Notes: a model not told the origin generated them from the sequence alone. 64,000 nucleotides of DNA from an uncultured Bdellovibrionales bacterium (GCA_964384235.1 CAYLJX010000001.1:22792-86791); one strand, 5' to 3'; positions 10,621-28,724 are shown, numbered from the stretch's first letter. Made by a program: numbers and translations.

Positions 10621-10709
10621 GGAGAGGTGCCTGAGCGGCTGAAAGGGGCACACTGCTAATGTGTTAACCGGGTAAAACCGGTTCGAGGGTTCGAATCCCT
10701 CCCTCTCCG
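10621..10709 (+). tRNA. tRNA-Ser (anticodon GCT), class II
   Basis: Acceptor GGAGAGG/CCTCTCC, anticodon loop CTGCTAA, long variable arm, T-arm GAGGG-TTCGAAT-CCCTC. The AT-rich island begins directly downstream. Confidence 0.85.
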
Positions 10710-10756
10710 CATCAAGCTTGTTTTATCGAGGGTGACCCGAGAGCCTCAAAACGAGC

Positions 10757-10802: not shown

Positions 10803-11348
10803 CTACTTTACCCAGCAATCTTTGAGCATCGGTGAACCGATAGTTGCGCTGTTTCCTGTCCCAATCAGGGTGACTGTTTGATCTTTTTTCATAGCAAGCG
10901 CCTTATCCCGCTCACTCTCCTTCATGTAACACTGAGATCCATTGAAGTCATACTCTCCATCAGAAAGTTTCACGATAATTTCGTCATCGAAAGTACCATT
11001 AGTGACCCCAGTAATTTTCCCAGTAATTTCAATTAACTTTCCCTTGTATTTAGAATCTGCGGCTACTTCATTCTCTTTGTACTCCTTTGCCAGGACGGCA
11101 CTAGTTACCGTCACATCAGGTATCGACTTTTCTGGGGCTACAGTTTGTGTATCTGCAGTCTTGTTTTCTTCTGCTGGAGCTCCTGCTATGTCATCAGAGA
11201 CTTTTTGTTTTGTATCTTCTACAGCACTATTACCAATGGCGTAGAGGATAGCAATGATTGCGATGGTGACGACCCACCATTTCTTGTACCACGCTTTCTT
11301 TTCTGGGACATTTTGAGCCTGTCCCGAAGGCTGAAGCTGTTGCTCCAT
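10803..11348 (-). CDS. hypothetical membrane-anchored protein (island)
   Basis: 181 aa with N-terminal TM (WWVVTIAIIAILYAI) and a Lys/Glu-rich extracellular part. No motif. Confidence 0.5.
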   Translation of the reverse strand: MEQQLQPSGQAQNVPEKKAWYKKWWVVTIAIIAILYAIGNSAVEDTKQKVSDDIAGAPAEENKTADTQTVAPEKSIPDVTVTSAVLAKEYKENEVAADSKYKGKLIEITGKITGVTNGTFDDEIIVKLSDGEYDFNGSQCYMKESERDKALAMKKDQTVTLIGTGNSATIGSPMLKDCWVK

Positions 11349-11584
11349 ATTATTGTTGCTAAGGAATTATTAAATTTGAGAATCCAGTTCTGAGAACACA
11401 AAAGGCCCTACGAACCGGTGGCAATCCTTTCGGACTGTCTCGGCGCTCTTTCGAACGTCGACCTTAGCAACAAGTACCGGCCATAGGGCCGTTTCTGTTG
11501 CTAAGGGTTTTATTGCGCCATGCCCGTATTGCTACGAGTTTAGGCATTATTGTACCTCAATTATAGCTTTTTAAGGGACGAAAA

Positions 11585-12940: not shown

Positions 12941-13024
12941 AGGATCAAGCCAATGAATGACGCAGACCCGAATCCTTGTCTAGACCCTCTCAAAAACCCC
13001 TCAAAGCCTTGTTAAAACCCTCTC

Positions 13025-14464
13025 CTAGAACCAGACGATCTCTTGCCTCCCATGATCCGCCTCGATAATTTTCAGAAGCAAAATAGCGAAAGCATCGGCT
13101 AAATCATCGTGCTTTTCTACCCCAAAACCCACCAACTGCCGGATCAAGTCCTCAGCCCCTTCTTTTGGGAAAAGCACTTTACCGGATTCAATGAGGGGAG
13201 TTGTTAAGGCCAGCCGGGCTCGCTTGTCCTGTCCATGAACCTTCACACCCTGAACAAAGGGTAATCCTCCACGCTGAAGCTCCTCAATGAGCACTCTTTG
13301 GTAAGCGACGTCCTCGACGTAGATATGCGGATAGTCATTATGAACGGTAGTCAAAGCCTTCGCTCTAATGAGAGTTTTGGTTTCGTAAAAGCTTAATCGT
13401 TTATTGACCGGATGAGGCTGAATGTAGATGCGGAGGTCTGGGCCATAGCCGTAAATATGAGCGGTCACCATCGCGGTGCAGTCTGCCGTGTTATTGGAAG
13501 AAATAGCGAGGTCAATACCAATAGCCGAGTAGCGAAATTCACCTTCATTCCACCCAGGAGGGCGATCATAGTAACGGATCTTCTCTGGGAAAATAAGCTG
13601 ACCTTCACTCGGGACAATCTTTAGGAGAAATTCTCTTTGCCAGGCGATATCGTTGCCTACTTTCCGCTCTTCTCGAATCAAATCTTCTTTTGCTGAATAT
13701 TTCCCGGGCCACAGGCATACTCCATCTTTATCAATGAGCGGATACTCCTTAAACACTCCATCAACTTTTCCGTTCTCAATATCTTGCTTCAGTCGCATAA
13801 GAAGAGAATCCTCATGGAGAAGATTTCCGACAAGTACCAGTCGAGTGTTCTGGTCTCCGGCTGGAATGACTTCGCTCGTAAGCCACTGGTAGGTTTTATC
13901 CCGGCTTTCTTTGGTTCGAGTCGAATCCATGTCTTCGAGATCGTCTCCAATAATAAGACTCGGCCGGTACTGATTATGTCGCAGTCCTCGAATACTTTGC
14001 TCACGCGAGGCAATACTGATCCGAGCATTGAGCTTGGTGAAAACAAGAGTAGCCGTACCCCATTCATCCGAATCTTCCTGAAACGGTCCAAGGTCATTCT
14101 TCAAAAGCTCATTGCTTTCAAGCTCTCGCTTAATGTTTACCATGTGCTGTTTGGCCTGGGTCCTCGTCTGGCAGAGAATCAGGATAAACTTATGGGCTTG
14201 TTTTCCAAGAATCGCCCAGAGCGTATACGAGAGCGTAATAATCGTTGACTTGGCCGAGCCACGGAAAGAAACAACGAGCAGGAATTTAATACCCTCGTCT
14301 TCGGTCAAAGCAAAAATATCTTTCTGGAACTCTGCCGTCTCATACTTCACGTAGTGGGCAAAGTAGAAATGGAAGAAGAGTAGATGGTTTTGTCTGACGA
14401 TTTCTCTTCGAACCTCTCGGTCACGAAGCATGTGCTGGAAAACTTTTTGAGAAAGGACGGACAT
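13025..14464 (-). CDS. phage terminase large subunit (TerL)
   Basis: ATPase Walker A VVSFRGSAKST and Walker B LIIGDDLEDM, plus a C-terminal RNaseH-like nuclease with acidic residues (IGIDLA, VEDVAYQ, HDDLADA). Confidence 0.85.
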   Translation of the reverse strand: MSVLSQKVFQHMLRDREVRREIVRQNHLLFFHFYFAHYVKYETAEFQKDIFALTEDEGIKFLLVVSFRGSAKSTIITLSYTLWAILGKQAHKFILILCQTRTQAKQHMVNIKRELESNELLKNDLGPFQEDSDEWGTATLVFTKLNARISIASREQSIRGLRHNQYRPSLIIGDDLEDMDSTRTKESRDKTYQWLTSEVIPAGDQNTRLVLVGNLLHEDSLLMRLKQDIENGKVDGVFKEYPLIDKDGVCLWPGKYSAKEDLIREERKVGNDIAWQREFLLKIVPSEGQLIFPEKIRYYDRPPGWNEGEFRYSAIGIDLAISSNNTADCTAMVTAHIYGYGPDLRIYIQPHPVNKRLSFYETKTLIRAKALTTVHNDYPHIYVEDVAYQRVLIEELQRGGLPFVQGVKVHGQDKRARLALTTPLIESGKVLFPKEGAEDLIRQLVGFGVEKHDDLADAFAILLLKIIEADHGRQEIVWF

Positions 14465-14466
14465 AG

Positions 14467-14856
14467 CTATTTTCCCCCTTTCTTATTCAGTCCAGCGAGC
14501 TTCAAAGCCTGCGTTACAACCGCTTTCTGTTCTCTACTCAGTTCTTTATTTTGGTCTGGCACCGTTGTTACCTCAATACGATCGCGAAATTTCTGGTGTC
14601 GGTGCCGCAGCCAGAAACTAATCGCCGGATAGTTCCTGTCACGAATGAGAGAGATGAGTTGAGACTCGCCCATATCGTTAATGAGAGCTTCACCTTCGAT
14701 CAGAGCCTCTTCCATCGCGTGGCGGAACTTCGAACTTTCTTTCCGCCAGCGATAGACCGTCGCTCGGGCAACCCCGGCTTTCTCGCAGGCGATCTGGATA
14801 ATGGGAATCTTTCTCAAATGATCGAGAAAGATTTGTTTCGTGCGGTTTGCTTTCAT
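14467..14856 (-). CDS. terminase small subunit-like HTH DNA-binding protein
   Basis: 129 aa immediately upstream of TerL with a 4-nt overlap to the MTase. HTH segment IACEKAGVARATVYRWRK. Confidence 0.5.
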   Translation of the reverse strand: MKANRTKQIFLDHLRKIPIIQIACEKAGVARATVYRWRKESSKFRHAMEEALIEGEALINDMGESQLISLIRDRNYPAISFWLRHRHQKFRDRIEVTTVPDQNKELSREQKAVVTQALKLAGLNKKGGK

Positions 14857-16238
14857 ACGCGTACTGCTTTCTTACCAGTCAGTTTTTCCCAGCGTTTCCG
14901 GATCACCTCGGCGTAGATAGGTGACTTTTCCATGAGGTAACAACGCCGCTTCATCTTTTCGCAGGCCATGAGGGTAGAACCGCTTCCACCGAAGGGTTCA
15001 ACAACGAGATCGCCCCGCCGGGTGAGAACCTTGAGGTAAGGAATGAGGATTTCCAATGGCTTGGTGCCGAAGATAATCCCTTGCCCCGAACTCTTCTTGT
15101 CAGCGGCTTTGTACTCGATGAAGTCGGTCGGACAAATCTTCTTCCCTTTCTCATACGATTCCCAGTGCGGCTTTCCACCAATGGCGTAGAGCGCAGTCTC
15201 ATACTCGTTCTGGAGCGGCTCTTCTTCGGGATCAATGTTATACGGCACTTCGCCTCCGCTACCGACCATGGCGATATCGTGCTTGTTGAAGAATTTGTAC
15301 TTGGCCGAGAATCCCTGGACTCGATTCGGGAGATGCCACACGATCATATTCTTCACCCGCCAATACTTCTCCATCTCGTCCCAGATGGTCCGAATATTCT
15401 TCCAGTTTTCGTACACAATGATGGAGAAGTCATCAGAAGCTACTTTCGAAATATTACCCATCCACTTTTCGGTGAAGTCGTCCGGCAAGGCATCAGTTTC
15501 GAGATAGCGACGGTTACGTTTCGCACCAAAGCCTTCAGTCGCCTCGCCGTTCTTTTTCTTGCCCCTGAGATAATCGAGGATGTAGGGCGGATCAGTGAAA
15601 CACATACTAGCCTTCTCATTGCCCATGAGCTTCCACATATCGGCTTCAACCGTTGAGTCACCACACATGAGCTTCGAATCTCCAAGCATCCAGACATCGC
15701 CTTTCTTAATTTCAATATTTTGGATATTGAGGCTCTTGAGTTCTTTCTCGAGGTCAAACATTTCGGGTGTATCTTCCATGGCAAAAATCTCATCGAGGTC
15801 TTCGCTCGAAAATCCGACATCGGCCAAGAACTCTTCACCGAAACTTTTGAGGAGGTCCCAATCGAACTCACCGACATTCTTGTTCAGGCGAATGTTGAGT
15901 TCTTTCTCCTTCGCGATATCTGGGATGGAGAGGTAGACCACGGGCATCTCCTTAATTCCAAGCTTCTTGGCCATGGCAAGACGGAAGTGGCCACCGATGA
16001 CAATGTTCATGCGCTCCGGTGCGCTGTTCACTACCAAGGGATCGATCATCCCAAAGCGCCGGAGACTCTCTTGGAGTTCTTCCTCTGCTTCTTTGCTCCA
16101 TTTCCTCGGGTTATATTCCGATGCCTTCAGCGCTGAGGCATCAACGTACTCGACCTGCAACCGACTGTCTTCATGCTTTGTCATATGTATGACCCTTAAT
16201 GAATTAGGGCAGGAGGCTTTCGCAAACAAAAAACCCAC
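14853..16238 (-). CDS. ParB-like nuclease domain fused to DNA methyltransferase (N6-adenine/N4-cytosine, beta class)
   Basis: N-terminal ParB motif (VIGGHFRLAMAKKLG). MTase motif IV DPPY (MCFTDPPY) and a C-terminal motif I FGGSGST. Typical phage orphan MTase architecture. Confidence 0.85.
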   Translation of the reverse strand: MGFLFAKASCPNSLRVIHMTKHEDSRLQVEYVDASALKASEYNPRKWSKEAEEELQESLRRFGMIDPLVVNSAPERMNIVIGGHFRLAMAKKLGIKEMPVVYLSIPDIAKEKELNIRLNKNVGEFDWDLLKSFGEEFLADVGFSSEDLDEIFAMEDTPEMFDLEKELKSLNIQNIEIKKGDVWMLGDSKLMCGDSTVEADMWKLMGNEKASMCFTDPPYILDYLRGKKKNGEATEGFGAKRNRRYLETDALPDDFTEKWMGNISKVASDDFSIIVYENWKNIRTIWDEMEKYWRVKNMIVWHLPNRVQGFSAKYKFFNKHDIAMVGSGGEVPYNIDPEEEPLQNEYETALYAIGGKPHWESYEKGKKICPTDFIEYKAADKKSSGQGIIFGTKPLEILIPYLKVLTRRGDLVVEPFGGSGSTLMACEKMKRRCYLMEKSPIYAEVIRKRWEKLTGKKAVRV

Positions 16239-16473
16239 TCTGCGTGAAACACAAAAAAACGAACTGCTTCATTTTTTTATGTCTCCTACAGAATGGGCAT
16301 GATTGAGAGCGGACGCTCTCTTTGGCGAAGAGGCTTCAATCCTTCGCGCTTATCGGCCAAGCCGAGATACATACTCTTTCGAGTGGGAAACTAGATTGTT
16401 TAAGTTTGCTAGTTCAAAGTATATTCTCTCTTGAAAAATCGTCAAGCTGGTCAAAAAGACCAGTATCTGATTC

Positions 16474-16502
16474 TTTACTTACACTGAAAAGCATTGTATA
16501 AT
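16474..16502 (+). promoter_or_regulatory. putative sigma70-type promoter for the island plus-strand operon
   Basis: TTTACT, a 17-nt spacer, then TATAAT (16497-16502) 14 nt upstream of the ATG at 16516. Small inverted repeats (CTGGTC-aaaaa-GACCAG at 16447-16463) lie just upstream. Confidence 0.35.
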
Positions 16503-16515
16503 AGCCGGAAAGCGT

Positions 16516-17307
16516 ATGGATTTTACCCCTTTGATAAACCATTGGAATGGTATCTCCGTGGAACAACGGAGCATTTTGTTGTTCGGCGGACTGATCTCGC
16601 TTGTCACTTTATTCATCGGCTTTATTTTTCGAGAACTTATATGGAAAGCCATTATATGGGTCTTTAGAAAGCTCTTTCATCCAAAGAAGCAATCCGCTGA
16701 ACCAATGAGCACTACTGAGGAAGCAATCTTTGCTTCTGAGGCTGTCGGTTTATCAGAAATCGGTACGCATATCATTGGCTCACGAGTAAATGGAGGTGTT
16801 CAACCGGTTTCAATTCAGATAGTGGGAGCAAATAGTGGACCAATTAATATTTCTCAACCGTTAAACCCAGATCCTAGGGCCACTTTACCGCCGACTAACC
16901 CGGAAACTTCATTGGCAACCCCTGAGGATGCCCTTTCTATTCCACCCAGAAGGAACATTACCGTAGAACTGGAAGAAAAATCTCTTTCAATATGTGGCGA
17001 CATCGAAAGGTATTTCCCAGGAAATGGTGACAGTATCCGAACTGAATATATCGCAGCTCAGAGAGCCAAGACTGACGGAAAAATGGCAATGGCAGCTGGA
17101 AAATATACCAAGATCTTTAATAATATTCTTCGACTTCTCGGAAGTTCACCTCACTGTTCTACTCAAGAACTCAAAGATCTTTTGTCCGAACTAGGCGGTA
17201 ATATTCAAGTCATGGATGAATCATTGAAAATGGGTCACTTAGAGCAGTCAGAGCTCGATAGCTGCGAACTTCATATCATGCGCATTTTCACCAAGTTCCC
17301 CGTATGA
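16516..17307 (+). CDS. hypothetical membrane-anchored protein (island operon gene 1)
   Basis: 263 aa with one N-terminal TM (LLFGGLISLVTLFIGFIF). Stop overlaps the next gene start (ATGA). Confidence 0.5.
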   Translation: MDFTPLINHWNGISVEQRSILLFGGLISLVTLFIGFIFRELIWKAIIWVFRKLFHPKKQSAEPMSTTEEAIFASEAVGLSEIGTHIIGSRVNGGVQPVSIQIVGANSGPINISQPLNPDPRATLPPTNPETSLATPEDALSIPPRRNITVELEEKSLSICGDIERYFPGNGDSIRTEYIAAQRAKTDGKMAMAAGKYTKIFNNILRLLGSSPHCSTQELKDLLSELGGNIQVMDESLKMGHLEQSELDSCELHIMRIFTKFPV

Positions 17308-20300
17308 ATAAAATCAACGTATATAAAAAAATTGATGAAGTAGTGAAAGCTGGTCCTTCTCATACCAAAAGGGAGGAACTTTTACTTTTGACAAGCGAAG
17401 AGGATTCTCGAAACTATTTTTATTCTGGAGCAGGTGAAATGTGGCTTTCATGGCTTTGGGAAAATCATTTTCTTGATCCGATAAAGGAAAAAGTCAACGA
17501 TCAAAACATTCCCACTAACCAACTTCCAGAGTTATTTTATCTTTCCCGAATTAGCGAAAAAGCTCCGGAAGTAGTTGCAAAGATTCTATTAGACATACCC
17601 GTCTCATCAAACTCTAATCAGATGGTAGTTGCTCAGTTCTTCAGAATAATAAGTGAGATGCCCGCAAAAGAACTACCTCCGCTGATTCAGAAGATGTCTC
17701 AGGAGAACTGGCTCCCTGTCATTAGTAGATATGGTCATATCGGATTTGACTTCGAGCGGATGTTTAGAGTTTTGGTAGAAGTAAGCGATTGGGAAAGCGT
17801 CCTTTCTCTTAGCCAGATGCTGTTGTTGGTAAAGGAGAAGCCGTCCAATGATGACTCATCATCGTGGGCTGACAACCCATTCTACTGTACCGATCTTGAA
17901 TACTCCGGCGTGTTTAATATTTTGTGCAACATTGAAGATGCTCACCTTGAACAATCTCTCGCTCTAGTGTCAGAAACCATGGGCAGCGTAGTGCACTATA
18001 ACGCAGACAAAAGGGAGCCGAGAGAGGCCTTCAAGGTTGGTGACGGATTTGCGTTTTATGAGATAGACTTTTTCACTCTCGAAACGAGTCAAAAAAGACA
18101 CACTTCTTATCGGGACGACGTTCGAAACTTAGCGGCAACTCTCAAGAAACTCTGTCAAAGAGTCTTTGAAAAAAATAAGGAAAACGAAAAAGAAGTTCGC
18201 CGGATATATAGTCAATACATTGAAACATTACCTGATAGTCAGGCAATGTGGCGGTTTCGTCTTTTCGTTCGAAGTCTGAATTCGGAGATTTTTCATCAAG
18301 AAATCAAAGACGCTATTTTCAGAATTGGAAAAGTGGCACGACCACATGACCTCACATCGCCAGAATACAAACGGCTTCTTCAACAGAACCTCAAGATCTT
18401 TTCTGAAAAAGAGAAACAAGATTACAAAAGTACTATTTTCAAGCTCATAGAAGATGAAAATGAGGGTCTTTCAAAATATGATGCTTACAGTATCTGCTCA
18501 TCGATTTTTGAGTGGCTTACTGACGAAGAAAAAGGGATTGCTGCAAACTATTCGAAACATGAGTTGGATCCTACCTATGTTCCGGAAACCACGATCCACT
18601 CACCGAAAGGTGGGACGGTAAGGAGTCTCTCTCCTATCTCTGATAATGAACTTCAAAAATCAGTAAGCGAAATAGCAAAGAGTCTTCGTAATGAGTGGGC
18701 TCCACAAAACCTGGGAAGAAAGGATGATTATAAAGAGGATTCTATAGACGAGTACGGCCCAGAAGGACTTGCTAACAAAATCAAAGAGAAGATTTCCGAA
18801 AGGCTGCAAGAATTTATTGATCATGCCCAAGAGTTCTTTGAGCCAGGTACTCTTGATGAGCATTACACCTATACATTTATAGGCGGTGTTCGTGATGCGT
18901 TTGGTGCTGGGAAGTTTGAATCTACCACCAATTGGGATGGGTTAATGAAGCTTTTTTCATTGATTGTTAACCAAGGTCGTTTACAAAATGGGAAATGGAG
19001 ACGAGAGGAATTCCTTGAATCTCTTGCTGGATGGACGGCTACTTATAGCGTTCTCGCAGAACTTATCAACGAGCTTGTTAAAGTCCGTAAAGACAAGACT
19101 CGGTCTTTTGACTTCACGAATAACAGAGATCAAGTTCTGGAAGTGATAAGGTATCTTCTTGCTCATCCAGATCCTACTGTAGAAAGTGAGGTATGCACCC
19201 CTAAAATTAAAAATGCCTCTGATACAGAGGATGAGGTGAAGTATGATTGCTCTGATCCTTTTACTCATGCCATTAACTCAGTGCGAGGTAAGGCATTTGA
19301 GGCTCTGATTAACTTTATGTACCGTGATGGCGAGAAACTCTCGAAAGAAAATACTGTATTAATCAGTGACGACGTAAAGAAGGTATACGAGGAACTTCTG
19401 GAACATGAAGATACGCGCGCAGTGAGATTTCTTTTTGGCCACTACCTTCCATCTGTGTATTTTCGTGATAAAGCATGGGCCGACAAGGTTGTTATCCCAA
19501 GGCTTTTTGACTTTGAAAACAACAAGGATCTATCCTTGGCTTCCTGGGAAGGATACCTGGCAAATAATGTATATCGCGATCTCTTCCTAAGGCTTGAGTT
19601 GTATTACCTCAAGAATATTCAATTGAAGCGAGAGGAATACACTCCTCGTGAGTATTTCAAGAATCTCGATGAGGGTATGGCGACCCATATAGCAATAGCC
19701 TTTATGCATTTTCCTGAAATTGCCCTTGAGTCAAATGTATTCAAGACCTTTTGGAAAGAGAAGAATGTAAAACGACAAAGCGAATTCATTTCATTTGTCG
19801 GTCGTTATGCTATATCTCGTGATAATGCAGCAGAGTGGATAAAGACAAATGGAGTGGATAAAGACAAGGTTGAGGCCTTCTGGGATTGGCTTTTATCGAA
19901 CACTGAAATTGACCAAAAAGTTTTTGAAGCGTTTGGATTCTGGATGGACGCAGAATGGAAAGTTTTTGATCCAAGTTGGCAAGCTGAGTATGCAAGAAGA
20001 ACTCTTGAAAAAACTCGGGGTGTTATCGATTGGGACTATAATCTCCAACAGTCACTCCCTGTATTTGTCAAAGTAGCTCCACAAGACACTCTGGCGATAC
20101 TGAGGCTATACTTACTTGATTATCTTTCTCAGAAAATGGAGCATCAGGGTTACTTCCACTTGGATGACGAGATTACCGAGGTATTTGAAGCGCTCTATAA
20201 TAATCCTGATACAAAACAAGGTGTCTATGATCTTATAGACGCTTTACTTCCTCGTGGGAATGGCGCTTTTTGGAAATTAAAAGACGTACTGAAAGATTAA
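17304..20300 (+). CDS. large hypothetical protein, 998 aa, predominantly alpha-helical (island operon gene 2)
   Basis: Long uninterrupted ORF with consistent AT-rich codon usage. No catalytic motif recognisable. Helical-repeat-like composition. Confidence 0.55.
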   Translation: MNKINVYKKIDEVVKAGPSHTKREELLLLTSEEDSRNYFYSGAGEMWLSWLWENHFLDPIKEKVNDQNIPTNQLPELFYLSRISEKAPEVVAKILLDIPVSSNSNQMVVAQFFRIISEMPAKELPPLIQKMSQENWLPVISRYGHIGFDFERMFRVLVEVSDWESVLSLSQMLLLVKEKPSNDDSSSWADNPFYCTDLEYSGVFNILCNIEDAHLEQSLALVSETMGSVVHYNADKREPREAFKVGDGFAFYEIDFFTLETSQKRHTSYRDDVRNLAATLKKLCQRVFEKNKENEKEVRRIYSQYIETLPDSQAMWRFRLFVRSLNSEIFHQEIKDAIFRIGKVARPHDLTSPEYKRLLQQNLKIFSEKEKQDYKSTIFKLIEDENEGLSKYDAYSICSSIFEWLTDEEKGIAANYSKHELDPTYVPETTIHSPKGGTVRSLSPISDNELQKSVSEIAKSLRNEWAPQNLGRKDDYKEDSIDEYGPEGLANKIKEKISERLQEFIDHAQEFFEPGTLDEHYTYTFIGGVRDAFGAGKFESTTNWDGLMKLFSLIVNQGRLQNGKWRREEFLESLAGWTATYSVLAELINELVKVRKDKTRSFDFTNNRDQVLEVIRYLLAHPDPTVESEVCTPKIKNASDTEDEVKYDCSDPFTHAINSVRGKAFEALINFMYRDGEKLSKENTVLISDDVKKVYEELLEHEDTRAVRFLFGHYLPSVYFRDKAWADKVVIPRLFDFENNKDLSLASWEGYLANNVYRDLFLRLELYYLKNIQLKREEYTPREYFKNLDEGMATHIAIAFMHFPEIALESNVFKTFWKEKNVKRQSEFISFVGRYAISRDNAAEWIKTNGVDKDKVEAFWDWLLSNTEIDQKVFEAFGFWMDAEWKVFDPSWQAEYARRTLEKTRGVIDWDYNLQQSLPVFVKVAPQDTLAILRLYLLDYLSQKMEHQGYFHLDDEITEVFEALYNNPDTKQGVYDLIDALLPRGNGAFWKLKDVLKD

Positions 20301-20306
20301 ATTCGT

Positions 20307-21350
20307 ATGGGATTTGAAAGCACAGAAGAGTATAAGAAAATCTTTAAATTTAGCAATAATAAGAGTTTACGACTTCTTACACGAGAAAGTAGTACTATTG
20401 AATTTAAAGTTTCTTTCAACTGGAGGTCGAAGGATGAGTACGCGAAGAGTGTTGCTGCTTTTGCAAATAAACAAGGAGGTTTCCTCATCTTTGGGGTCAA
20501 GGATAAACCAAGGGAGTTAGTTGGCCTTCAATCAGATAAATTCGAGGAGATAGATGAGGCAGTAATTTCTGAATATTTAAATAGCTTGTTTTCTCCTGAG
20601 ATAGAGTTTGAAAAGTTTGTAGTGAAGGTTCGAGATAAGGATGTAGGGGTAATAAAAGTCCATTCTGTAGGTCAGAAGCCTGTCGTAGCAACAAAGAATG
20701 ATGGTTCTGTAAGAGAGGGTGAAATCTATTATCGGTACAATGCAAAAAAGGAGAAAATAAAGTTTCCTGAACTTAGAGAGTTACTGGACAAGATTCGAGA
20801 AGAAGAGCGCAAGGAATGGATGTCTCTGTTTTCAAGAATCTCTAGCATAGGGCCAGAGAATGCAGCGCTTCTAGATATGGCCAGTGGCAGAATAGAGGGG
20901 AAGACAGGTACATTGGTTATAGATAGAAAATTAATTTCTAAACTGAAATTTATTCAGGAAGGAAGGTTTCACGAGACTGGATCTCCTACGCTTAAACTGG
21001 TTGGCGAAGTAAGGCCTATCACAGTAGTGAAATCTAGAAGATCCTCAGCTGGTGGTAAGTTAAAGATTACCAACGATCCATCCGCTCCAGAAGTTAGAGT
21101 TAAAGAAGAGGACTTGTTAAATGAATATTCCCTAGATTACAAAGCTCTTACAAAAGAGCTTGTAAAAAGGTACCAGGATTTCAAACCAAATAAAAAATAC
21201 CACGAGGTCCGTAAATTTCTAATGAAGAAGGAAGGGAACTCATTTACTCGGACACTAAATCCAAAAAATGCTAAGAGTGTAAAGCAGGACTTTTATAGCC
21301 CTAGGATAATTAAGGCGTTCGGTAAGTTTTACAAAAAGAAAACGAGTTAG
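20307..21350 (+). CDS. AlbA_2 (Schlafen-like putative DNA/RNA-binding) domain protein
   Basis: N-terminal region IEFKVSFNWRS...AKSVAAFANKQGGFLIFGVKDKPRELVGL matches the PF04326 AlbA_2 signature (EFK...AFAN..GG.lxxGV.D). Confidence 0.6.
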   Translation: MGFESTEEYKKIFKFSNNKSLRLLTRESSTIEFKVSFNWRSKDEYAKSVAAFANKQGGFLIFGVKDKPRELVGLQSDKFEEIDEAVISEYLNSLFSPEIEFEKFVVKVRDKDVGVIKVHSVGQKPVVATKNDGSVREGEIYYRYNAKKEKIKFPELRELLDKIREEERKEWMSLFSRISSIGPENAALLDMASGRIEGKTGTLVIDRKLISKLKFIQEGRFHETGSPTLKLVGEVRPITVVKSRRSSAGGKLKITNDPSAPEVRVKEEDLLNEYSLDYKALTKELVKRYQDFKPNKKYHEVRKFLMKKEGNSFTRTLNPKNAKSVKQDFYSPRIIKAFGKFYKKKTS

Positions 21351-21353
21351 TTT

Positions 21354-22424
21354 GTGATTTCTTCATATAAATATCTCAAAGACTATACATACTACTCTGA
21401 CCTCTATGATCGCTTCACCATAGAGGAGTGCCAGCGTTGGGAAGACAAGGAATATCCTGTACCACCTGAAGAATCCGACAAGGAAGCAAAACTGAGAAAA
21501 GTAAAAGAAGAATTCCTTCAAAAAGTGGTTACTCCTCTCGGACTCTACTTTCTCACTGCTGACCGCGCTGCAAAGAAACCTGAAACCATTCAGGAATGGA
21601 TGAGGCGAGACCAAGAAAAGGACGAGCGAGTCACCAACGCTGAAGAACCGAGAAGTATCCGCTGTCTGGGGTGCAGTGCGTTTTTGACAAACTGCATCTC
21701 GCGAGATCTCATGGATAATCACCAAGGACGAGAAGAGGTCCTTTTTATGTTTGAATGTGGCCAGTGTCACAAACGCCGAGCCTTTTGGGAAGATGGCAGA
21801 GAGTGGGAATACAAACCGAAGTGTATAAAGTGCCAGTCAGAAGTGGCGTCGGAAACGACTAAAAAAGATGCTCTCCTTACCACTCGATACACCTGCTCCC
21901 ATTGTGGTCATGTGGAGATAGATACTATGGATCTCAGTAAGAAAGAAGAGGAAAAGATTGATCCTAATTTTGAGGCTAACCGGAAGAAATACTGTATCTC
22001 AGAGCTCGAAGGACAGCGGATTATCCGTGAATCGGAAGAGATGAAGGAGTTTGTTGATAAATGGAAAGAGAGGGATAAGAACAAAGACCTTTATGATGCC
22101 ATAGGAAAGATACAGAAGCTCACCATTGTTGAGCTCCAAGCTCTCCTTGACCCACTTCTTGAAAAAGCTAGCTATACCAAACTCGAGTTCGAGAAGCCCG
22201 TTCTGGAGAAAGATGTTATCCTCGAATTCGGGCTCCAAGATGCCAAATCTGGCCGAGGAGACTATGATAGCCGTCATGATCTTCAAAAGCTCTTCAAAGA
22301 GGCTCTAAGCCCTACAAATTGGCGCCTGATGAGCGATGGAGTCACTTATCGTCTTGGATTCCTCCAAGGGCGCCTAAAGGGCGTAGAAGGCGAGGAAAAG
22401 TTCAAAGAGCTCCTCGAATCCTAA
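21354..22424 (+). CDS. zinc-ribbon protein, hypothetical
   Basis: Four CxxC pairs (CLGC, CGQC, CIKC, CSHC) forming two predicted zinc ribbons. Otherwise charged and helical. Confidence 0.5.
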   Translation: MISSYKYLKDYTYYSDLYDRFTIEECQRWEDKEYPVPPEESDKEAKLRKVKEEFLQKVVTPLGLYFLTADRAAKKPETIQEWMRRDQEKDERVTNAEEPRSIRCLGCSAFLTNCISRDLMDNHQGREEVLFMFECGQCHKRRAFWEDGREWEYKPKCIKCQSEVASETTKKDALLTTRYTCSHCGHVEIDTMDLSKKEEEKIDPNFEANRKKYCISELEGQRIIRESEEMKEFVDKWKERDKNKDLYDAIGKIQKLTIVELQALLDPLLEKASYTKLEFEKPVLEKDVILEFGLQDAKSGRGDYDSRHDLQKLFKEALSPTNWRLMSDGVTYRLGFLQGRLKGVEGEEKFKELLES

Positions 22425-22497
22425 CAAAAGAAAAAAGGTCTTGGTAAATAAGGTTTTACAGGAGACAATACAACTAGTTCTTCTGGGAGTCTTATCG

Positions 22498-22526
22498 TGG
22501 ACAAAACGTGTTTTTTGATGTATAAT
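22498..22526 (+). promoter_or_regulatory. putative internal promoter
   Basis: TGGACA, a 17-nt spacer, then TATAAT (22521-22526) in the 142-nt gap before the kinase gene. Confidence 0.4.
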
Positions 22527-22566
22527 TCACTCAATTTTTAACTCCGATAAAGGTAATCAAAAGAAG

Positions 22567-23178
22567 ATGTCATTCGAAAGCTACAAGCAAGATTCTCGGG
22601 ATATGCATCTCAACCCTGCCGAAGGTAGGGAGTATGCGGAGGCGCTAGAATCATTATTGGAAAAATACAAGGATAAGAGAGTGCTTGTACTTGCGCCACC
22701 AAGTGTTGGGAAGAGTACCATTCTTCAGCATATTAAGGAGGGCGTTGATTTGGATGTGGTGTTTGATGATATGCCAGAAGAATTTAAAAGACATGTGCTG
22801 CACCACGAACACCCGTTTATGTTTATTGATGGTGATAAGAAAACGGTAAAATACACTGAAAAAGAATTTGATCCAATGAGTGATGAGCATCAGGACCACC
22901 TAAAAAAGACAACGGAATCATTGACAGAATATACTCAGAACAAGGTAAATATTGAAGCAGGGCATCCCGCTTTCGGGAGTACACTCATAGATGCGGATGT
23001 CGTTATTTATCTTAAGATTTCTGACGAGGAGCTCAAGAAAAGAATTGAGGCACGGAATACCAAGACTTATCGACTTGCTCAGCTCGAAAGGGTAAAAGCG
23101 ATAAAGAAAAACCTTGAAGCTGATTTGGAGAGATTGAGATCGGAAGGAAAGATTGTCGAGGAGCTGGCAATCTCATAA
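22567..23178 (+). CDS. P-loop NTPase / nucleotide or polynucleotide kinase-like protein
   Basis: Walker A LAPPSVGKST and Walker B-like VVFDD. 203 aa. Confidence 0.6.
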   Translation: MSFESYKQDSRDMHLNPAEGREYAEALESLLEKYKDKRVLVLAPPSVGKSTILQHIKEGVDLDVVFDDMPEEFKRHVLHHEHPFMFIDGDKKTVKYTEKEFDPMSDEHQDHLKKTTESLTEYTQNKVNIEAGHPAFGSTLIDADVVIYLKISDEELKKRIEARNTKTYRLAQLERVKAIKKNLEADLERLRSEGKIVEELAIS

Positions 23179-23201
23179 ATTACCTAAAACAACGTAAACA
23201 T

Positions 23202-23744
23202 ATGAAAATGCAGAAGAAGATAGTCTTTTTGGATGGCGACGGGACGCTCTGGTATCCCAAAGCGACGAAGCGTACGCAAAAACCTCACTGGATTTACCAT
23301 GATCCAGCAACGAAAGATAACTACCTTGAACATCTGGAGTTGACACCTCGGACCAAGGAAACCCTCGAAGCTCTACGAGAAAAGGGAGTCTACCTCGTAG
23401 TGCTTTCAGCCAACCCTTACGCTGAAGAAATAGCTATCAAAGAGATTAAAGAACGACTCGAACACTTTGGACTCAGTAGTTTGTTCTATGCACACAGATC
23501 TTCGAGTGGAGATGATCCAAATGGTAAAGCAACCATTATGGTGGAAATTCTCTCTTCTCTAGGTCTCCGTAAAGAGGACGCGCTGATGGTTGGAGATAGC
23601 TACTTCTATGACTATCTTGCAGCCAAGAATGTTGGTATAGATGCTCTGTTTATTGAAAATGGCGTTTCAAAAATGCCAGAGGAAATCCCTCAGGATTTGC
23701 AGTCAATCAAAGAGGTCCACGAATTGCTTGATATATTGGCCTGA
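23202..23744 (+). CDS. HAD-superfamily phosphatase
   Basis: Motif I FLDGDGTLW (DxDxT), motif II S (VVLSANP), motif III K, and motif IV GDSYFYD. Confidence 0.7.
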   Translation: MKMQKKIVFLDGDGTLWYPKATKRTQKPHWIYHDPATKDNYLEHLELTPRTKETLEALREKGVYLVVLSANPYAEEIAIKEIKERLEHFGLSSLFYAHRSSSGDDPNGKATIMVEILSSLGLRKEDALMVGDSYFYDYLAAKNVGIDALFIENGVSKMPEEIPQDLQSIKEVHELLDILA

Positions 23745-23751
23745 GGTTTCT

Positions 23752-26700
23752 ATGAATGCAGATACCGCAAGAGAAAAGCTCTTAGAATTTAACCAGAAGG
23801 GCGATGCCAGTATACTGGTTGGCTTGCTGGGTATTGCTGAGCATGATGTCGAAAGTGCCATACGTTTTATTAATGCACATGCTGACAAGAATCAGCTAGA
23901 GACATTAGTATTTCAACCACTGAAGGTCAATGAAAAGCATCTCGTATTTGTTGATCCATCGCTTGAGATCAAGGCGGTTAGTACGGATATTGTTCATCTG
24001 AAAAAGACGCTGGAGCAGATTAAGATGTATGATAATGAGAATCCTGTAAGTGTAACTTCCAGTGTTGACTTGAGATGCTTACTCCTCTCGTTAGCAAAGT
24101 CAGAACTCAAATCTTATGATGTTTTTACGAATTTCAATACCGATAACTTAGGTAAAGCCACTCTAAGAAAGTGCCTCGAAGATGAAAAGAACTGGATTAA
24201 AGAAAGAGTTCAAATTCAAAAAGAGCTCATAAATCGCAGCTATAGAAGCGCGGTAGCCTTGGCACGAAAAGTAGCGCGATCCAAAAAGCTCGGGAGAGGT
24301 ATTTACTGCGTGAGAGGGTCTGTGGCTTCAGGAAAGTCTTCATTTATTGAAGGTATCCTTCGCCAGAATATACGGGTATTTGAGAACTCTGGTGGAGTTT
24401 TAAATACTGACGCTCTGAAAAGACAGCTCCTAGTCAATACCCTAAATGTGACTGGTCACGCGCTTTCCGGGTATCTCTTTCACGAGGAAGCTTCAGTCAT
24501 CAGTGAAAAAGTCCTCAAGCTAATTAAAAAATCAACCTCTGGCTACGTAGTTGATAGGAGAATGCAAGATGCTACTGACCTTGATGAATTATTAGTAGAT
24601 GCTGCCGAGAGAAAATTGCCAGTTACCATCTTTGACCTGAAAGTAGATTTCATAACATCAGCTCTGCGTGTTCTTGAGAGAACAGGCGTATATCCAAGCG
24701 ATCCTACGCCAGACTTTTTAGCCTTGTACAAAAGCTATAGAACCATAGAGGAAGGTCGCCTATCCTTCTTAGAAAAATCACTTCGTGCAAAGTCCGTAAA
24801 AAATTACTCTGTTGTTCGAGTGAATAGTAATGGGCATCCGGTCATTGTTAATCTCAAGAAGGACTATAGGGTTAATAAGAAGAGTACGGAACAGGAGTCG
24901 GAAGTGCGATATATAGCAAGTGCTGATAGTTTGCGCGATACAGTGCTCTCTAATGGAAAAACACTCCAGCATACCCTTGATGAGCACTCATACAAGAACT
25001 ACAACATGCGCTATTCTCGGCAAGAGTATTTGGATAGTCTTTTGCATAATATCGAAAAGACTAGCAGAACATTTGCTGGTGAGTTAAATGTCTCTGCATC
25101 AAAAGATAAGTCTCGGCTAGTCAATTTGTTCATGCCGAAGAACGATCTGGCTGATACAACAAGGAATAATATCACTCAAGCATTTGATTTTGTATATGAG
25201 AATAAAAACCTGCCTCTGATATCACCGCAGGTACTCCGAGATTTTATTGATCAAATAGCAAGGATTGTTAATCAAGGGATCGTAAGCGACGAGAATCTGA
25301 TTCTTCGGAGTGGGAGTAATTCCCATAAGTATTTTTATGTAGATACTCGATACATAGAAAGGTTCTATCAATCATTCGTGAATCAGTTTTTCGAAAAGCT
25401 CAATGATCCGGTGATTACATCAGTGGATCTTGCTGCATGGGTTGAATGGAATATCGACTTCTGCGGACATATTTTTGTCGACGGCTGTGGCAGAATAGCC
25501 AAGGTTGTAAGCGCCTGGTTGTTAATGAGAGATAATAGCGACTTACCAGATTATAGTATTGGTCAGGATGGGTTTGAAACAGTCCGAGAATCCTATCGAA
25601 GAAGGTTTGCTCTGAAAGCTAGAGTTCGTCTTCAAATACCAGCTGATACAAAGAGTTATCGTAGCTTTTTGGCCTACTATAGGAGATTGTTCAACCCTAA
25701 GGAAACCTATAAAGTTCTTGCTTCAGGAGGTTTAATATACAATTCATCAGGGCAATTTTTGATACTCCAGACCAGTAAAGGTAAAGATTATGGAAAATGG
25801 GTCGTACCAGGTGGTAAACTTGGCGTTCAAGAGACTCCTGTCGCAGCTTTTGTTCGTGAGGTTTTCGAAGAAACGGGACTGAAGATTGATCACATCATGC
25901 TGATGGGAGTACGAGACTATACGGCAAAAAGTGGTAACCACTATCATTTTTACGACTATACCTCCACTGTTGTAGAAGAGAAAGAAATCAGGATCAATGA
26001 GGAATCACTTTCCTTCAAGTGGATTACGAAGGACCAGATACCAAATTATAAATTTACAGACTCTATTGCTAACTTTGTCAATAAGTACTTTGCATTGGAA
26101 CGCTTGGATATCTATAGCAAGGTAGTTACGGTTCCTGATAAGAACTTTGATTCCCCATACCTAGATGATCACACGATGACTGTTTCATTGGAAAAGTATG
26201 TTCAATCCAAACTACCAGTAGAGCTGATAACGACTAAAGTTAAGACAATAGATAGGGTAGAAGTCCACGGTATATATCCAGATCTTAAGGTTTTAAATGA
26301 TCTTAACCTTGGATTTAATATCCTGGAGGTAATTCACTTCAGTAAACAAAAAAGTGACAACAGCAACAGTTTGAGGCCGATGTTCTTATTAGCTGAAAAA
26401 GACTCTAAGAAACTCCTTGTTTGCTGTGTAACCCCGGGCCGGGATTTATTGATCCACTACGCTTCTATGTTGAAGTATTATTTCAGAAACTCATCAACTC
26501 CTGTATTGGCTTATGCTTATCCGTTCGCCGAAAAGAAAATCGATAAATGGACTGGGTTGGATAACAAGATGATTATAAAAAACGATATCGTTATCCTTGG
26601 TTACAGTACTTTCTTTAGGAATCAGTTTGAGAAAGACCCTGATTTTTCCGTACTCAGCACCTATCAGAACAAGTATTACTCTGCTACGAGATTTATTGCT

Positions 26701-27285
26701 AAAAATGGCAAGATAGTAAATTGTCTTGAAGCAAACTATGGACATTGGGGTGACATAAGTGACTTTTTGGCGCAGAAGATATGTCAGTTACATGCATCAG
26801 AAATTCTACACATAGGTAAGGTTGGTACTTTGAAGTCTCCGAGCGAAGTGTATAAGCGAATCTATATACCGAAATCTTTCGTCATAGGAAGAAGGAATGA
26901 GATTATGAGTATTGGCTCCAGAATCAGTAACTCGATGGAGTACATAAAGGAACATTCTTCCTTGGCACACGTTTCAGTATCTACAACAATGGAAGAAACA
27001 TTTGCTCAACGGAAAAACTTATCTCAAAAAAAGGTCGACACTATAGATATTGAATCTTCAAAGATTGCCCGTGCGGTTGCCCTATACAACTTAGCAAATA
27101 AGGCAAAAGTGAAGTTTGGAGCAATACACTTCTCTTCTGATTATTTGAAAAAGCCAGATGAGGTCGGTAATGGTGCAGATTTGGATTTGGCAACCAATAG
27201 AGAGGAATTGGAATACAGAAAGAAAAGTATCCTGATTGAAATTTCGTCTGTTATAAAAAAACATCTTCTAAAGACAAGTTCTTAG
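23752..27285 (+). CDS. 1177-aa multidomain protein: P-loop (zeta-toxin/AAA-like) kinase, Fic/Fido motif, Nudix hydrolase, nucleoside phosphorylase (PNP_UDP_1)-like
   Basis: Start taken at ATG 23752 (MNADTAR); the tracked ORF start at 23641 would overlap the HAD gene. Walker A GSVASGKSS (res 189-197). Fido motif HIFVDGCGR (res 573-581). Nudix box GGKLGVQETPVAAFVREVFEETGL (res 686-709). C-terminal VSVSTTMEETF...DIESSKIARAVALYNLANKAKVKFGAIHFSSDY resembles the DeoD/MTAN active-site region. Confidence 0.75.
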   Translation: MNADTAREKLLEFNQKGDASILVGLLGIAEHDVESAIRFINAHADKNQLETLVFQPLKVNEKHLVFVDPSLEIKAVSTDIVHLKKTLEQIKMYDNENPVSVTSSVDLRCLLLSLAKSELKSYDVFTNFNTDNLGKATLRKCLEDEKNWIKERVQIQKELINRSYRSAVALARKVARSKKLGRGIYCVRGSVASGKSSFIEGILRQNIRVFENSGGVLNTDALKRQLLVNTLNVTGHALSGYLFHEEASVISEKVLKLIKKSTSGYVVDRRMQDATDLDELLVDAAERKLPVTIFDLKVDFITSALRVLERTGVYPSDPTPDFLALYKSYRTIEEGRLSFLEKSLRAKSVKNYSVVRVNSNGHPVIVNLKKDYRVNKKSTEQESEVRYIASADSLRDTVLSNGKTLQHTLDEHSYKNYNMRYSRQEYLDSLLHNIEKTSRTFAGELNVSASKDKSRLVNLFMPKNDLADTTRNNITQAFDFVYENKNLPLISPQVLRDFIDQIARIVNQGIVSDENLILRSGSNSHKYFYVDTRYIERFYQSFVNQFFEKLNDPVITSVDLAAWVEWNIDFCGHIFVDGCGRIAKVVSAWLLMRDNSDLPDYSIGQDGFETVRESYRRRFALKARVRLQIPADTKSYRSFLAYYRRLFNPKETYKVLASGGLIYNSSGQFLILQTSKGKDYGKWVVPGGKLGVQETPVAAFVREVFEETGLKIDHIMLMGVRDYTAKSGNHYHFYDYTSTVVEEKEIRINEESLSFKWITKDQIPNYKFTDSIANFVNKYFALERLDIYSKVVTVPDKNFDSPYLDDHTMTVSLEKYVQSKLPVELITTKVKTIDRVEVHGIYPDLKVLNDLNLGFNILEVIHFSKQKSDNSNSLRPMFLLAEKDSKKLLVCCVTPGRDLLIHYASMLKYYFRNSSTPVLAYAYPFAEKKIDKWTGLDNKMIIKNDIVILGYSTFFRNQFEKDPDFSVLSTYQNKYYSATRFIAKNGKIVNCLEANYGHWGDISDFLAQKICQLHASEILHIGKVGTLKSPSEVYKRIYIPKSFVIGRRNEIMSIGSRISNSMEYIKEHSSLAHVSVSTTMEETFAQRKNLSQKKVDTIDIESSKIARAVALYNLANKAKVKFGAIHFSSDYLKKPDEVGNGADLDLATNREELEYRKKSILIEISSVIKKHLLKTSS

Positions 27286-27308
27286 TGGTTTTCTACGACT
27301 TCTGTATT

Positions 27309-27369
27309 TTGAGACAGAATATTGTCTCAATCTGGTAAAATGAGACAGGGGTTGTCTTGTGTCTCATTT
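27309..27369. repeat. cluster of perfect palindromes with TGAGACA/TGTCTCA core (candidate recombinase or operator site)
   Basis: TTGAGACA-gaatat-TGTCTCAA (27309-27330) and AAATGAGACA-ggggttgtcttg-TGTCTCATTT (27338-27369). Additional TGTCT(T) copies follow. Confidence 0.5.
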
Positions 27370-27492
27370 GTCTTGTTTTATCCCTGAAACCGCGACCCGA
27401 CCTCTTTAATTCACTCGTTGGCCAAGACTCTCAAGAAATCCCTCAACGGCTTGATTTCTCAAAGTTCTAGACCGATGACGCCCGCACTGAAA

Positions 27493-28280: not shown

Positions 28281-28724
28281 ATGAATGACCTGAAAAAAGG
28301 TATAGATTATATCGGGACGTGTGTCGTCTTCTTCTGCCATGACGGGGAAGGAAACTTCGTGATGGCCAAGCGTGGCAGGAATGCCCGAAACGAGCACGGT
28401 CGGTGGGATATCGGCGGAGGCAGTATCGAGTTCGGCGACACGGCCGAAGAGACGCTTCGCAAGGAAATCCGGGAGGAATACGGTACCGATGTCCTGGATT
28501 TCGAATTCTTGGGCTATCGTGACGTACTTCTTGAATCCGGCGGACAACCGACGCACTGGCTTGCCCTGGATTTCAAGGTGCATGTCGATCCTGAAAAAGT
28601 GAAAAACGGTGAACCGCACATCTTCGACGATATCGGGTGGTTCACGTTTGACACGATTCCGGAGCAGGCTCATTCGCAGCTTCCGAAATTTCTTGATTTG
28701 TATCGGGAGAGACTCGGCGTTTGA
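28281..28724 (+). CDS. Nudix hydrolase
   Basis: Nudix box GGGSIEFGDTAEETLRKEIREEYG. Confidence 0.85.
   Translation: MNDLKKGIDYIGTCVVFFCHDGEGNFVMAKRGRNARNEHGRWDIGGGSIEFGDTAEETLRKEIREEYGTDVLDFEFLGYRDVLLESGGQPTHWLALDFKVHVDPEKVKNGEPHIFDDIGWFTFDTIPEQAHSQLPKFLDLYRERLGV

Follow-up and report, generated by a model that had tools for sequence, protein, structure and literature searches.

The window analysed here is a 64,000-nucleotide (nt) stretch of a contig assigned to an uncultured Bdellovibrionales bacterium (GCA_964384235.1, CAYLJX010000001.1:22792-86791); window positions are counted from its first letter. Between positions 16516 and 27285 the window carries seven plus-strand genes, to which we gave the working names g1–g7. 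The original prediction, made from the sequence alone, described them as one cargo operon and as a candidate defence, anti-defence or toxin system. Open reading frame (ORF) coordinates confirm that seven co-directional genes are present and that they are transcribed away from a divergent minus-strand group encoding the large and small terminase subunits (TerL and TerS) and a ParB–DNA methyltransferase (MTase) fusion. The genes and associated elements are as follows.

16474–16502 (+), TTTACT-17-TATAAT promoter-like site upstream of g1, 10/12
16516–17307 (+), g1, 263 amino acids (aa), N-terminal transmembrane helix, 4-nt overlap with g2
17304–20300 (+), g2, 998 aa, all-alpha HEAT/ARM-like solenoid
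20307–21350 (+), g3, 347 aa, AlbA_2/Schlafen-like protein
21354–22424 (+), g4, 356 aa, four CxxC pairs, double zinc ribbon
22498–22526 (+), TGGACA-17-TATAAT promoter-like site, 11/12
22567–23178 (+), g5, 203 aa, P-loop kinase (AAA_18), adenylate/nucleoside-kinase-like
23202–23744 (+), g6, 180 aa, HAD phosphatase
23752–27285 (+), g7, 1177 aa, four predicted enzyme domains
27286–27486 (+), conserved noncoding 3′ tail of the g5–g7 cassette (blastn end points at 27486 in L001–L004 and L013)

The promoter-like sites come from a consensus scan scored out of 12 and are matches to the consensus only. The 11/12 site, which had been noticed earlier in the gap between g4 and g5, is the top-scoring one in the region, and its position is conserved in four related cassettes. 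Consecutive genes are separated, in order, by a 4-nt overlap and by 6, 3, 142, 23 and 7 nt. The overlap and the 142-nt gap thus agree with the original prediction, which gave two of the other distances as 7 and 4 nt (really 6 and 3 nt, each off by one) and left the 23-nt gap unmentioned. The longest ORF of g7 begins at 23641; the ATG at 23752 is the start in all homologues and in the database entry of the protein. GC content is 0.40–0.43 across 16–28 kb, 0.53–0.60 on both flanks and 0.48 in the 12–16 kb backbone, and the 16–28 kb block is a low-GC compositional island, at 0.41 against 0.55.

The kinds of product that had been proposed were all recovered. The N-terminal hydrophobic helix expected of a membrane-anchored g1 is present in its sequence, the AlphaFold model of g2 is a confident all-alpha solenoid (pLDDT 83.7), g3 matches AlbA_2 in Pfam (5.6e-24) as well as Schlafens in the PDB, and the four CxxC pairs of g4 are invariant. 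Pfam AAA_18 and HAD matches identify g5 and g6 as a P-loop kinase and a HAD phosphatase, and g7 has a four-domain architecture consisting of an AvrRxo1/zeta-type kinase, a Fic-like domain, a Nudix domain and a domain of NP-I fold.

The proposal of a single operon and a single system made up of all seven genes did not hold. There are two promoter-like sites, the 142-nt gap coincides with a module boundary, and the set is found at no other examined locus. The original prediction had itself tied the single-system idea to recurrence of the operon elsewhere; among the ca. 30 related loci that we sampled for module comparison (labels L001–L023 etc.), none carries the full set. More than one module was found in the same locus in two situations only: L006 and L009 hold both g2 and g4, with other genes between them than in the window, and short g4 remnants lie next to the cassette. 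On comparison of these sequences, the block is mosaic cargo of an integrative element of ca. 17 kb located near a tRNA-Ser gene, with a backbone of serine recombinase, TerL, TerS and ParB-MTase genes.

The best-defined module is g5–g6–g7. Neighbourhoods of this cassette were collected from assemblies, species-representative genomes and metagenome contigs, and every fetchable one was examined. Homologues of g5 and g6 lie directly upstream of the g7 homologue in every examined cassette locus, with identities across loci of 47–82% for g5, 66–91% for g6 and 42–76% for g7. Besides the window, the cassette is present in ca. 14 distinct lineages from at least four phyla, the carriers including metagenome-assembled genomes (MAGs) labelled Bdellovibrionales, Gammaproteobacteria, Moraniibacteriota and Saccharibacteria. 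Neither g1 nor g2 nor g3 was found in any of these ca. 14 further lineages. DNA homology among cassettes, as detected by blastn, starts at 22498–22511, i.e., at the promoter, and ends at 27486; the promoter hexamers are kept in L001/L023, L004 and L022. In several hosts the GC content of the cassette is below that of its flanks. In L016 (3128–7195), the HAD phosphatase and g7 are fused in a single ORF of 1355 aa, and in L020 (7001–10590) g7 is split at residue ca. 785 into genes of 790 and 406 aa, with the NP-I module separate. This fusion and this fission point to functional linkage of the cassette genes. Elsewhere, mobile contexts of the cassette include a conjugative one in L005, with a TraG-like gene and a relaxase, and a nearby serine recombinase in L012; no cassette relatives were found in 2.9 million IMG/VR viral contigs. 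Taken together, these comparisons define g5–g6–g7 as an autonomous, horizontally mobile three-gene cassette that has its own promoter and crosses phyla.

One further feature was noted near a cassette. In L004/L013, the aminotransferase–ClpC hypervariable region of a Moraniibacteriota MAG that holds the cassette also carries a diversity-generating retroelement (bAvd + RVT_1; 17994–19402), ca. 4.5 kb downstream.

Of the two small cassette proteins, g6 belongs to the HAD superfamily by both Pfam and NCBIfam (52.3 bits with PF00702 and 48.1 bits with PF13419) and carries motif I as FLDGDGTLW. The g7 family comprises 26 clusters at 90% identity among 5.8 billion, with ca. five full-length representatives at 50%; column statistics and motif invariance were taken over 23 family members. 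The protein can be divided as follows.

23752–24156 (+), N-terminal domain, aa 1–135, no domain assigned
24157–24903 (+), AvrRxo1/zeta-toxin-type kinase, aa 136–384 (NCBIfam XopAJ/AvrRxo1, PDB 4z8q)
24904–25716 (+), Fic-like domain, aa 385–655, HxFxDGCGRxxK
25717–26103 (+), Nudix hydrolase domain, aa 656–784 (Pfam 2e-16, PDB)
26104–27285 (+), C-terminal NP-I module (PNP/uridine phosphorylase/MTA or AMP nucleosidase fold), aa 785–1177

The N-terminal domain is the least conserved, with a mean column identity of 0.62 vs. 0.75–0.82 for the enzyme domains, and all four catalytic signatures are reported as invariant in the family. In the kinase, the profile match to PDB entry 4z8q (1.2e-8) aligns GSVASGKSS with GNTATGKTR, NTDALK with NPDVFK and VLER with VLQR, with the Walker A GK[ST], the D..K pair and the arginine kept; these motifs are invariant in the 23 family members. 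The catalytic residues of AvrRxo1 are K166, T167, D193, K196 and R287 (PMC4938570). The g7 kinase is best described as a homologous domain rather than as a member of the curated XopAJ/AvrRxo1 family.

The Fic-like motif HxFxDGCGRxxK is likewise invariant and keeps seven of the nine specified positions of HxFx(D/E)GNGRxxR, with cysteine in place of asparagine and lysine in place of arginine. The PDB profile matches of this region are weak (E 0.4–1.7), but every one of them is to a Fic protein, with the active sites in register. The Nudix domain scores 60.6 bits with PF00293 (cut-off 21.1) and has an intact Nudix box, GGKLGVQETPVAAFVREVFEETGL, that is conserved across the g7 family, with GX5EX7REVxEETGL invariant.

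The C-terminal module has the alpha/beta fold of the NP-I class. None of nine members tested matched Pfam PNP_UDP_1 at E ≤ 5, no sequence match was found in the PDB, and the catalytic residues are not assignable from sequence. The module corresponds to a widespread family of stand-alone proteins of ca. 400 aa, and it was also seen repeatedly behind an alpha/alpha-toroid (squalene-cyclase/TED-like) domain; the family was viewed through P0229, P0231, P0227, P0236 and P0241, the last of which places the module behind DUF4062 plus a toroid. DUF4062 has been described as a TIR-like NADase of an anti-phage system (2026 preprint, 10.64898/2026.05.01.722283).

The N-terminal, kinase and Fic domains also occur together as the extreme C-terminus of proteins of 1632–2607 aa (P0220–P0222, P0338, P0289 and P0350), and the kinase of P0222 matches AvrRxo1 at 5e-41. 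The N-terminal 1000–2000 aa of these giant proteins match no Pfam family. When they were examined as possible RHS, LXG or MuF polymorphic toxins, Pfam and PDB revealed the zeta/AvrRxo1 domain only; the giant proteins may represent a novel type of toxin carrier.

To the left of the block lie the following features.

10621–10710 (+), tRNA-Ser(GCT) gene, left side of the island (ARAGORN, Rfam)
11420–11546 (−), LOOT RNA motif RF03000 (cmscan, 63.9 bits vs. a gathering score of 46.4)
11585–12940 (−), large serine recombinase (Resolvase + Recombinase + Zn_ribbon_recom; Pfam)
13025–14464 (−), TerL (PHROG 38 at 1.6e-74, NCBIfam)
14467–14856 (−), TerS-like small terminase subunit (PHROG 4044/309)
14853–16238 (−), ParB_N–N6/N4 DNA methyltransferase fusion, backbone gene (Pfam, PHROG 498 at 6e-81)

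The recombinase is the predicted integrase of the element. TerL is 51–56% and the TerS-like protein 46–63% identical to counterparts in the sister elements L010, L011 and L018, and the ParB-MTase fusion is 76% identical in L011. The window contains neither capsid nor portal nor tail genes, and its interpretation as a complete prophage was rejected, none of these being located between the recombinase and the host genes. The view that g1–g7 are cargo of a mobile element, and not ordinary phage replication or structural genes, was upheld. Homologous tRNA-Ser genes are found near related islands or cassettes (blastn matches in L004/L013, L006, L009 and L014). Downstream of the block lie genes for a CsaA-like tRNA-binding protein, a Nudix protein and ClpC. 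Separately, the LOOT RNA was seen to lie directly 3′ of the recombinase gene, before a tRNA_anti-like OB-fold gene (10803–11348); it might be part of the element, e.g., as an att region or in regulating the recombinase.

The host genome appears to be that of a Moraniibacteriota-like bacterium of the Candidate Phyla Radiation (CPR), since the recombinase falls into a 90%-identity cluster of 32 members that includes a Candidatus Moraniibacteriota MAG protein, a MatE-like gene (29814–31160) is 78% identical to a copy in a complete Moraniibacteriota genome, and ClpC (69%) and an aminotransferase (60%) match genes flanking the cassette in another Moraniibacteriota MAG. Host GC content is ca. 0.55 (window 1–10000 and 28000–64000) vs. 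ca. 0.46 around the L004/L013 cassette; the proteins are still 60–78% identical. Megablast matched the island to none of the complete E. coli genomes and to no INPHARED phage, these collections being uninformative for CPR-derived sequence.

The window (11585–22424), L010, L011 and L018 represent a family of CPR elements that have the order serine recombinase–TerL–TerS–(ParB-)N6/N4 MTase…g4. From its gene content this family looks satellite-like, with no capsid genes in the window. The g4 family itself has more than 420 clusters, mostly from Patescibacteria; no relatives of g4 were found in Pfam or the PDB, where a profile search gave chance-level matches only. The architecture of L010 and L011 is that of the window: TerL, TerS and (ParB-)MTase on one strand, and on the other variable genes, g4 and further variable cargo. 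Since g4 occupies the same position in these elements, behind TerL–TerS–MTase and a set of variable genes, it is a backbone gene that closes a variable slot, and the MTase–g4 interval is a hotspot of the defence type. In the window the slot holds g1–g2 and g3. In L010 it holds Shedu SduA, in L011 an overlapping pair of genes for 156 and 816 aa followed by DUF2726, and across the sister elements it includes Shedu SduA, a Type IIG restriction–modification (RM) gene, a DrmD-like helicase and an SspH-like ATPase. The variable set of L009 consists of a split g2 homologue, a DUF4365 nuclease and an SspH/mad8-like FtsK ATPase. The cargo after g4 varies as well (copper resistance in L011, HD and kinase genes in L010, g5–g7 in the window).

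Remnants of the 3′ end of g4 are found beside the cassette in L001–3 and L023 and beside a g2 homologue in L006; those next to the cassette show that g4 and the cassette are former neighbours. The remnants comprise the last 70–280 nt of g4, the rest of the gene being gone, and all end ca. 10 nt past the g4 stop codon; the end of g4 could be a recombination or insertion junction. At four loci, a small separate Nudix gene was also observed within 0.1–2 kb of the cassette or of a g4 remnant; either a conserved host gene beside a favoured point of insertion or a functional relationship could account for it. The positions are as follows.

22354–22437 in the window, 8644–8724 in L001–3, 39–111 in L023 and 11411–11687 in L006, g4 3′ end or its remnants
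28281–28724 (+) in the window, 6420–6935 in L004, 5162–5770 in L021 and 11721–12308 in L006, small Nudix gene

As for the slot contents of the window, Foldseek matches of the g2 model (karyopherins, CAND1 and the Avs4 sensor) are of a generic HEAT/ARM kind, the best query-normalised TM-score, with Avs4, being 0.34; no enzymatic domain was detected, and g2 is likely a binding or sensor scaffold. The g2 family has 23 clusters. In five other lineages a small partner always precedes the g2 relative with a 4-nt overlap or is fused to it, and these partners have a common EWKEHC.SLRE / NPDW.AQ.AHSLR motif. Genes g3–g7 were never seen after g2 relatives in the five lineages. Direct neighbours of the g2 relatives are Type III RM and Mrr genes in L007, Type I hsdRMS in L008, and an HKD-SNF2 helicase with a Type IIG RM gene in L018.

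In the window the partner’s position before g2 is taken by g1, which has a transmembrane helix instead of the partner motif. No g1 relatives were found in any examined locus, and blastp of g1 against the EWKEHC.SLRE partner family (upstream ORFs and fusion proteins) revealed no similarity. The idea that g1–g2 is an orthologous copy of the solenoid–partner pair was rejected accordingly: g2 alone is orthologous, and g1 is unrelated to the partner family. From association only, we infer that g1–g2 is a candidate defence pair composed of a solenoid sensor and a membrane effector. The overlapping pair of L011 (3754–6671) was observed in the same slot position as g1–g2. It was rejected as a sequence counterpart of g1–g2, to which it has no similarity, and it has no Pfam or PADLOC matches; by analogy of position it may be a comparable two-gene system.

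The N-terminus of g3 matches Schlafen 8/5/14/11 structures in the PDB. Its C-terminal ca. 100 aa match PADLOC PDC-S19 at 5.6e-28, covering only the C-terminal third of that model, and its N-terminal part matches the N-terminal third only of PDC-S50. No relative of g3 was found in the other loci. Again by association only, g3 is an independent candidate defence gene that would encode a Schlafen-type nuclease. The link to defence drawn in the original prediction is thus reasonable for g1–g3, which occupy the slot and, in the case of g2 relatives, have RM neighbours, and weak for g5–g7, the neighbours of which are mostly housekeeping genes.

That the combination corresponds to no described system proved correct, PADLOC giving partial single-domain matches only. 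PADLOC-DB v2 models do not match g1, g2 or g4, and their matches to g5–g7 are limited to weak generic kinase, HAD and Nudix ones. PADLOC, Pfam, NCBIfam and PHROG contain no model for the cassette, g1, g2 or g4 as systems. The searchable literature contained nothing relevant on an AvrRxo1–Fic–Nudix–PNP architecture, on AvrRxo1 in phage defence or on the LOOT motif.

We favour the reading in which the block is mosaic cargo of the element and the cassette is a toxin–antidote or abortive-infection-type module directed at nicotinamide adenine dinucleotide (NAD) or adenine nucleotides, and assign it a probability of roughly 0.55. Taken by itself, the assignment of g5–g7 to a toxin–antidote, addiction or abortive-infection-type unit has about an even chance of being right, and NAD or adenine nucleotides are probably the target of g7. 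A role in toxicity or nucleotide conflict is proposed from domain content only. AvrRxo1 reportedly phosphorylates NAD to 3′-NADP, and the AvrRxo1-type kinase of g7 would phosphorylate NAD or a related nucleotide. The Nudix domain would cut a pyrophosphate bond, and the NP-I domain an N-glycosidic bond, as AMP and ATP nucleosidases do. The atypical Fic domain may modify a protein target or regulate the enzyme, the variable N-terminal domain may be a sensor or regulator, and the g6 phosphatase and the small kinase g5 would reverse or buffer the reactions of g7. A conflict role is supported by the kinase–Fic block that ends giant proteins of 1600–2600 aa and by the fusion of the NP-I module to DUF4062 in P0241. 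AvrRxo1 is the toxin of a toxin–antitoxin pair (PMC4938570). A further-reaching version, which we regard as tentative and less likely than not, holds that the cassette is a new self-contained NAD/adenine-nucleotide immune or addiction module that moves among CPR bacteria, Bdellovibrionales and Proteobacteria. In it, g7 would unite an NAD kinase of AvrRxo1 type, an atypical Fic domain with its cysteine, a Nudix domain and an NP-I nucleosidase, and g6 and g5 would be dedicated enzymatic antidotes reversing the small-molecule product of g7. Separately, no satellite-like element with a defence hotspot would have been described from CPR bacteria before this one.

Several observations weigh against this interpretation. 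The g7 kinase scores 107.4 bits (E 8.3e-31) with the NCBIfam XopAJ/AvrRxo1 model, below the curated cut-off of 300 bits. Pfam Fic (PF02661) is matched below threshold by 8 of 12 members (best E = 0.013), and the protein from the window does not match it. The model of the NP-I module is of low confidence over residues 240–366, and the substrates proposed for g7 derive from distant homology only. No small ORF of the size of Arc1 is conserved in any cassette locus as an Arc1/epsilon-type antitoxin would be, similarity to the Arc1 sequence not having been searched, and no known defence or toxin–antitoxin model in PADLOC covers the cassette. The most conserved gene of the cassette is that of the HAD phosphatase g6, in one case fused to g7; this is atypical of antitoxins and would suit a metabolic pathway equally. 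Cassettes are mostly found among housekeeping genes (pyruvate kinase and DXP synthase, dnaG–rpoD, between ruvA and ruvB, a P-type ATPase) and not within defence islands. As to the division of the block, no terminator-like site was found in the 142-nt g4–g5 gap by a region scan, so that read-through from g4 to g5 may take place, and the pairing of g1 with g2 is based on position and a 4-nt overlap only, g1 having no relatives.

The strongest competitor, though an unlikely one, is a metabolic pathway for salvage or house-cleaning of nucleotides and NAD in symbionts or predators with reduced genomes (CPR, Bdellovibrionales). In such a pathway the Nudix domain would yield nucleoside monophosphates, the HAD protein would be a nucleotidase, the NP-I domain would be a nucleoside phosphorylase, and re-phosphorylation would fall to the two kinases. 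The activities of the partners are all those of classic salvage enzymes, the catalytic motifs are all strongly constrained, the hosts include CPR and Bdellovibrionales MAGs, and the housekeeping neighbours, together with the high conservation of the HAD protein and its fusion to g7, which suggests substrate channelling, fit in as well. A salvage pathway is harder to reconcile with a family as rare and patchy as this one (26 clusters among 5.8 billion), with a cassette whose GC content is consistently under that of its hosts and which has spread across phyla by transfer, and with the same kinase–Fic block ending giant toxin-like proteins. Moreover, the known roles of Fic proteins and of AvrRxo1/zeta-type kinases are those of toxins or effectors and not of salvage enzymes (PMC4938570).

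Less probable still is that g7 is a delivered multi-domain effector, similar to polymorphic toxins or polyvalent proteins, that would be deployed by mobile elements or by predatory or episymbiotic bacteria against the NAD-based immunity or metabolism of another cell, with g5 and g6 for self-protection. Fic and Nudix are known secreted-effector domains, as is expected under this scheme; the CPR and Bdellovibrionales hosts, the position of the kinase–Fic block at the C-termini of giant proteins and the conjugative context of L005 would agree with it too. AvrRxo1 is also a known secreted-effector domain (PMC4938570). However, g7 has no signal peptide and no recognised secretion or trafficking domain, secretion-system genes are lacking nearby, the count in 2.9 million viral contigs is zero, only one locus is clearly conjugative, and RHS, LXG or MuF domains are not recognisable in the giant carriers. 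Finally, it is very improbable that all seven genes are transcribed together as one operon and make up one system for defence, anti-defence or toxicity. Co-directionality, tight spacing and the lack of a terminator-like site between g4 and g5 are what such an operon would have, and the g4 remnants at the cassettes of L001–3 and L023 imply that g4 and the cassette travelled together at least once; against it stand the recurrence of each module alone among the ca. 30 loci, none of which has the set, the conserved promoter belonging to the cassette itself, and a g4 family of more than 420 clusters with quite different neighbours.

If the cassette is indeed a toxin–antidote or abortive-infection module, the AvrRxo1-type kinase would join NAD/nucleotide-depletion immunity, and the antidotes would be metabolic enzymes rather than binding proteins. 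To our knowledge, this kinase has so far been known as a plant-pathogen effector and as the toxin of a toxin–antitoxin pair. With its size of 4.9 kb, a promoter of its own and portability between phyla, the cassette is directly testable in E. coli, and splitting the block into modules averts a mis-designed cloning of seven genes as a single “system”. As the element shows, CPR/Patescibacteria genomes harbour integrative elements in which a defined slot accommodates defence genes (Shedu, RM, the new solenoid pair). Since CPR bacteria are hard to culture, this slot offers a sequence-based way to search for new defence genes.

Compared with known systems, the cassette resembles AvrRxo1–Arc1 and zeta–epsilon (PezAT) in that the g7 kinase matches the XopAJ/AvrRxo1 model and structures, with the Walker A motif, the Asp–Lys pair and the Arg kept. 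Like avrRxo1 modules, it is of low GC content and horizontally acquired (PMC4938570). It differs from them in that the kinase domain, scoring 107 vs. 300 bits, shares a protein of 1177 aa with three other enzyme domains, and in that the partners conserved beside it are P-loop kinase and HAD phosphatase genes; no small antitoxin gene is conserved, Arc1 similarity not having been searched. With Fic/Doc toxins (AMPylators, Doc kinase) g7 shares an HxFxDG.GR loop rightly placed in a predicted helical domain, but it has Cys for the conserved Asn and Lys for the last Arg, scores under the Pfam threshold, and has no cognate Phd-type antitoxin in the cassette. Effectors with NP-I-fold nucleosidase domains occur in anti-phage systems, e.g., the ATP nucleosidases of CBASS and Detocs. 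Unlike these effectors and AMP nucleosidase, the g7 module matches neither Pfam PNP_UDP_1 nor a PADLOC effector in sequence, and the cassette has no signalling cyclase or two-component partner.

Polyvalent proteins (Iyer et al. 2017, PMC5512222) are likewise very large, with several conflict-type enzymatic domains in series; g7 differs from them in not being on viral contigs, in being mostly chromosomal amid housekeeping genes (only L005 is conjugative), and in its fixed domain order with two fixed small partners instead of combinatorial architectures. In PADLOC PDC-S19 and PDC-S50 and in Schlafen/AlbA_2 proteins, g3 finds counterparts of its AlbA_2/Schlafen N-terminus and of its PDC-S19-like C-terminal ca. 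100 aa; unlike full-length members, it matches each PDC model in part only. The predicted mobile element as a whole recalls P4-like satellites, phage-inducible chromosomal islands and prophage hotspots, in which a conserved backbone flanks a variable slot with known defence genes (bioRxiv 10.1101/2021.01.21.427644). It is set apart by its CPR host and by its backbone of serine recombinase, TerL, TerS, ParB-MTase and g4, capsid genes being absent from the window. Each predicted domain of g7 belongs to a known superfamily, and it is the architecture, the two fixed enzymatic partners and the distribution that are new.

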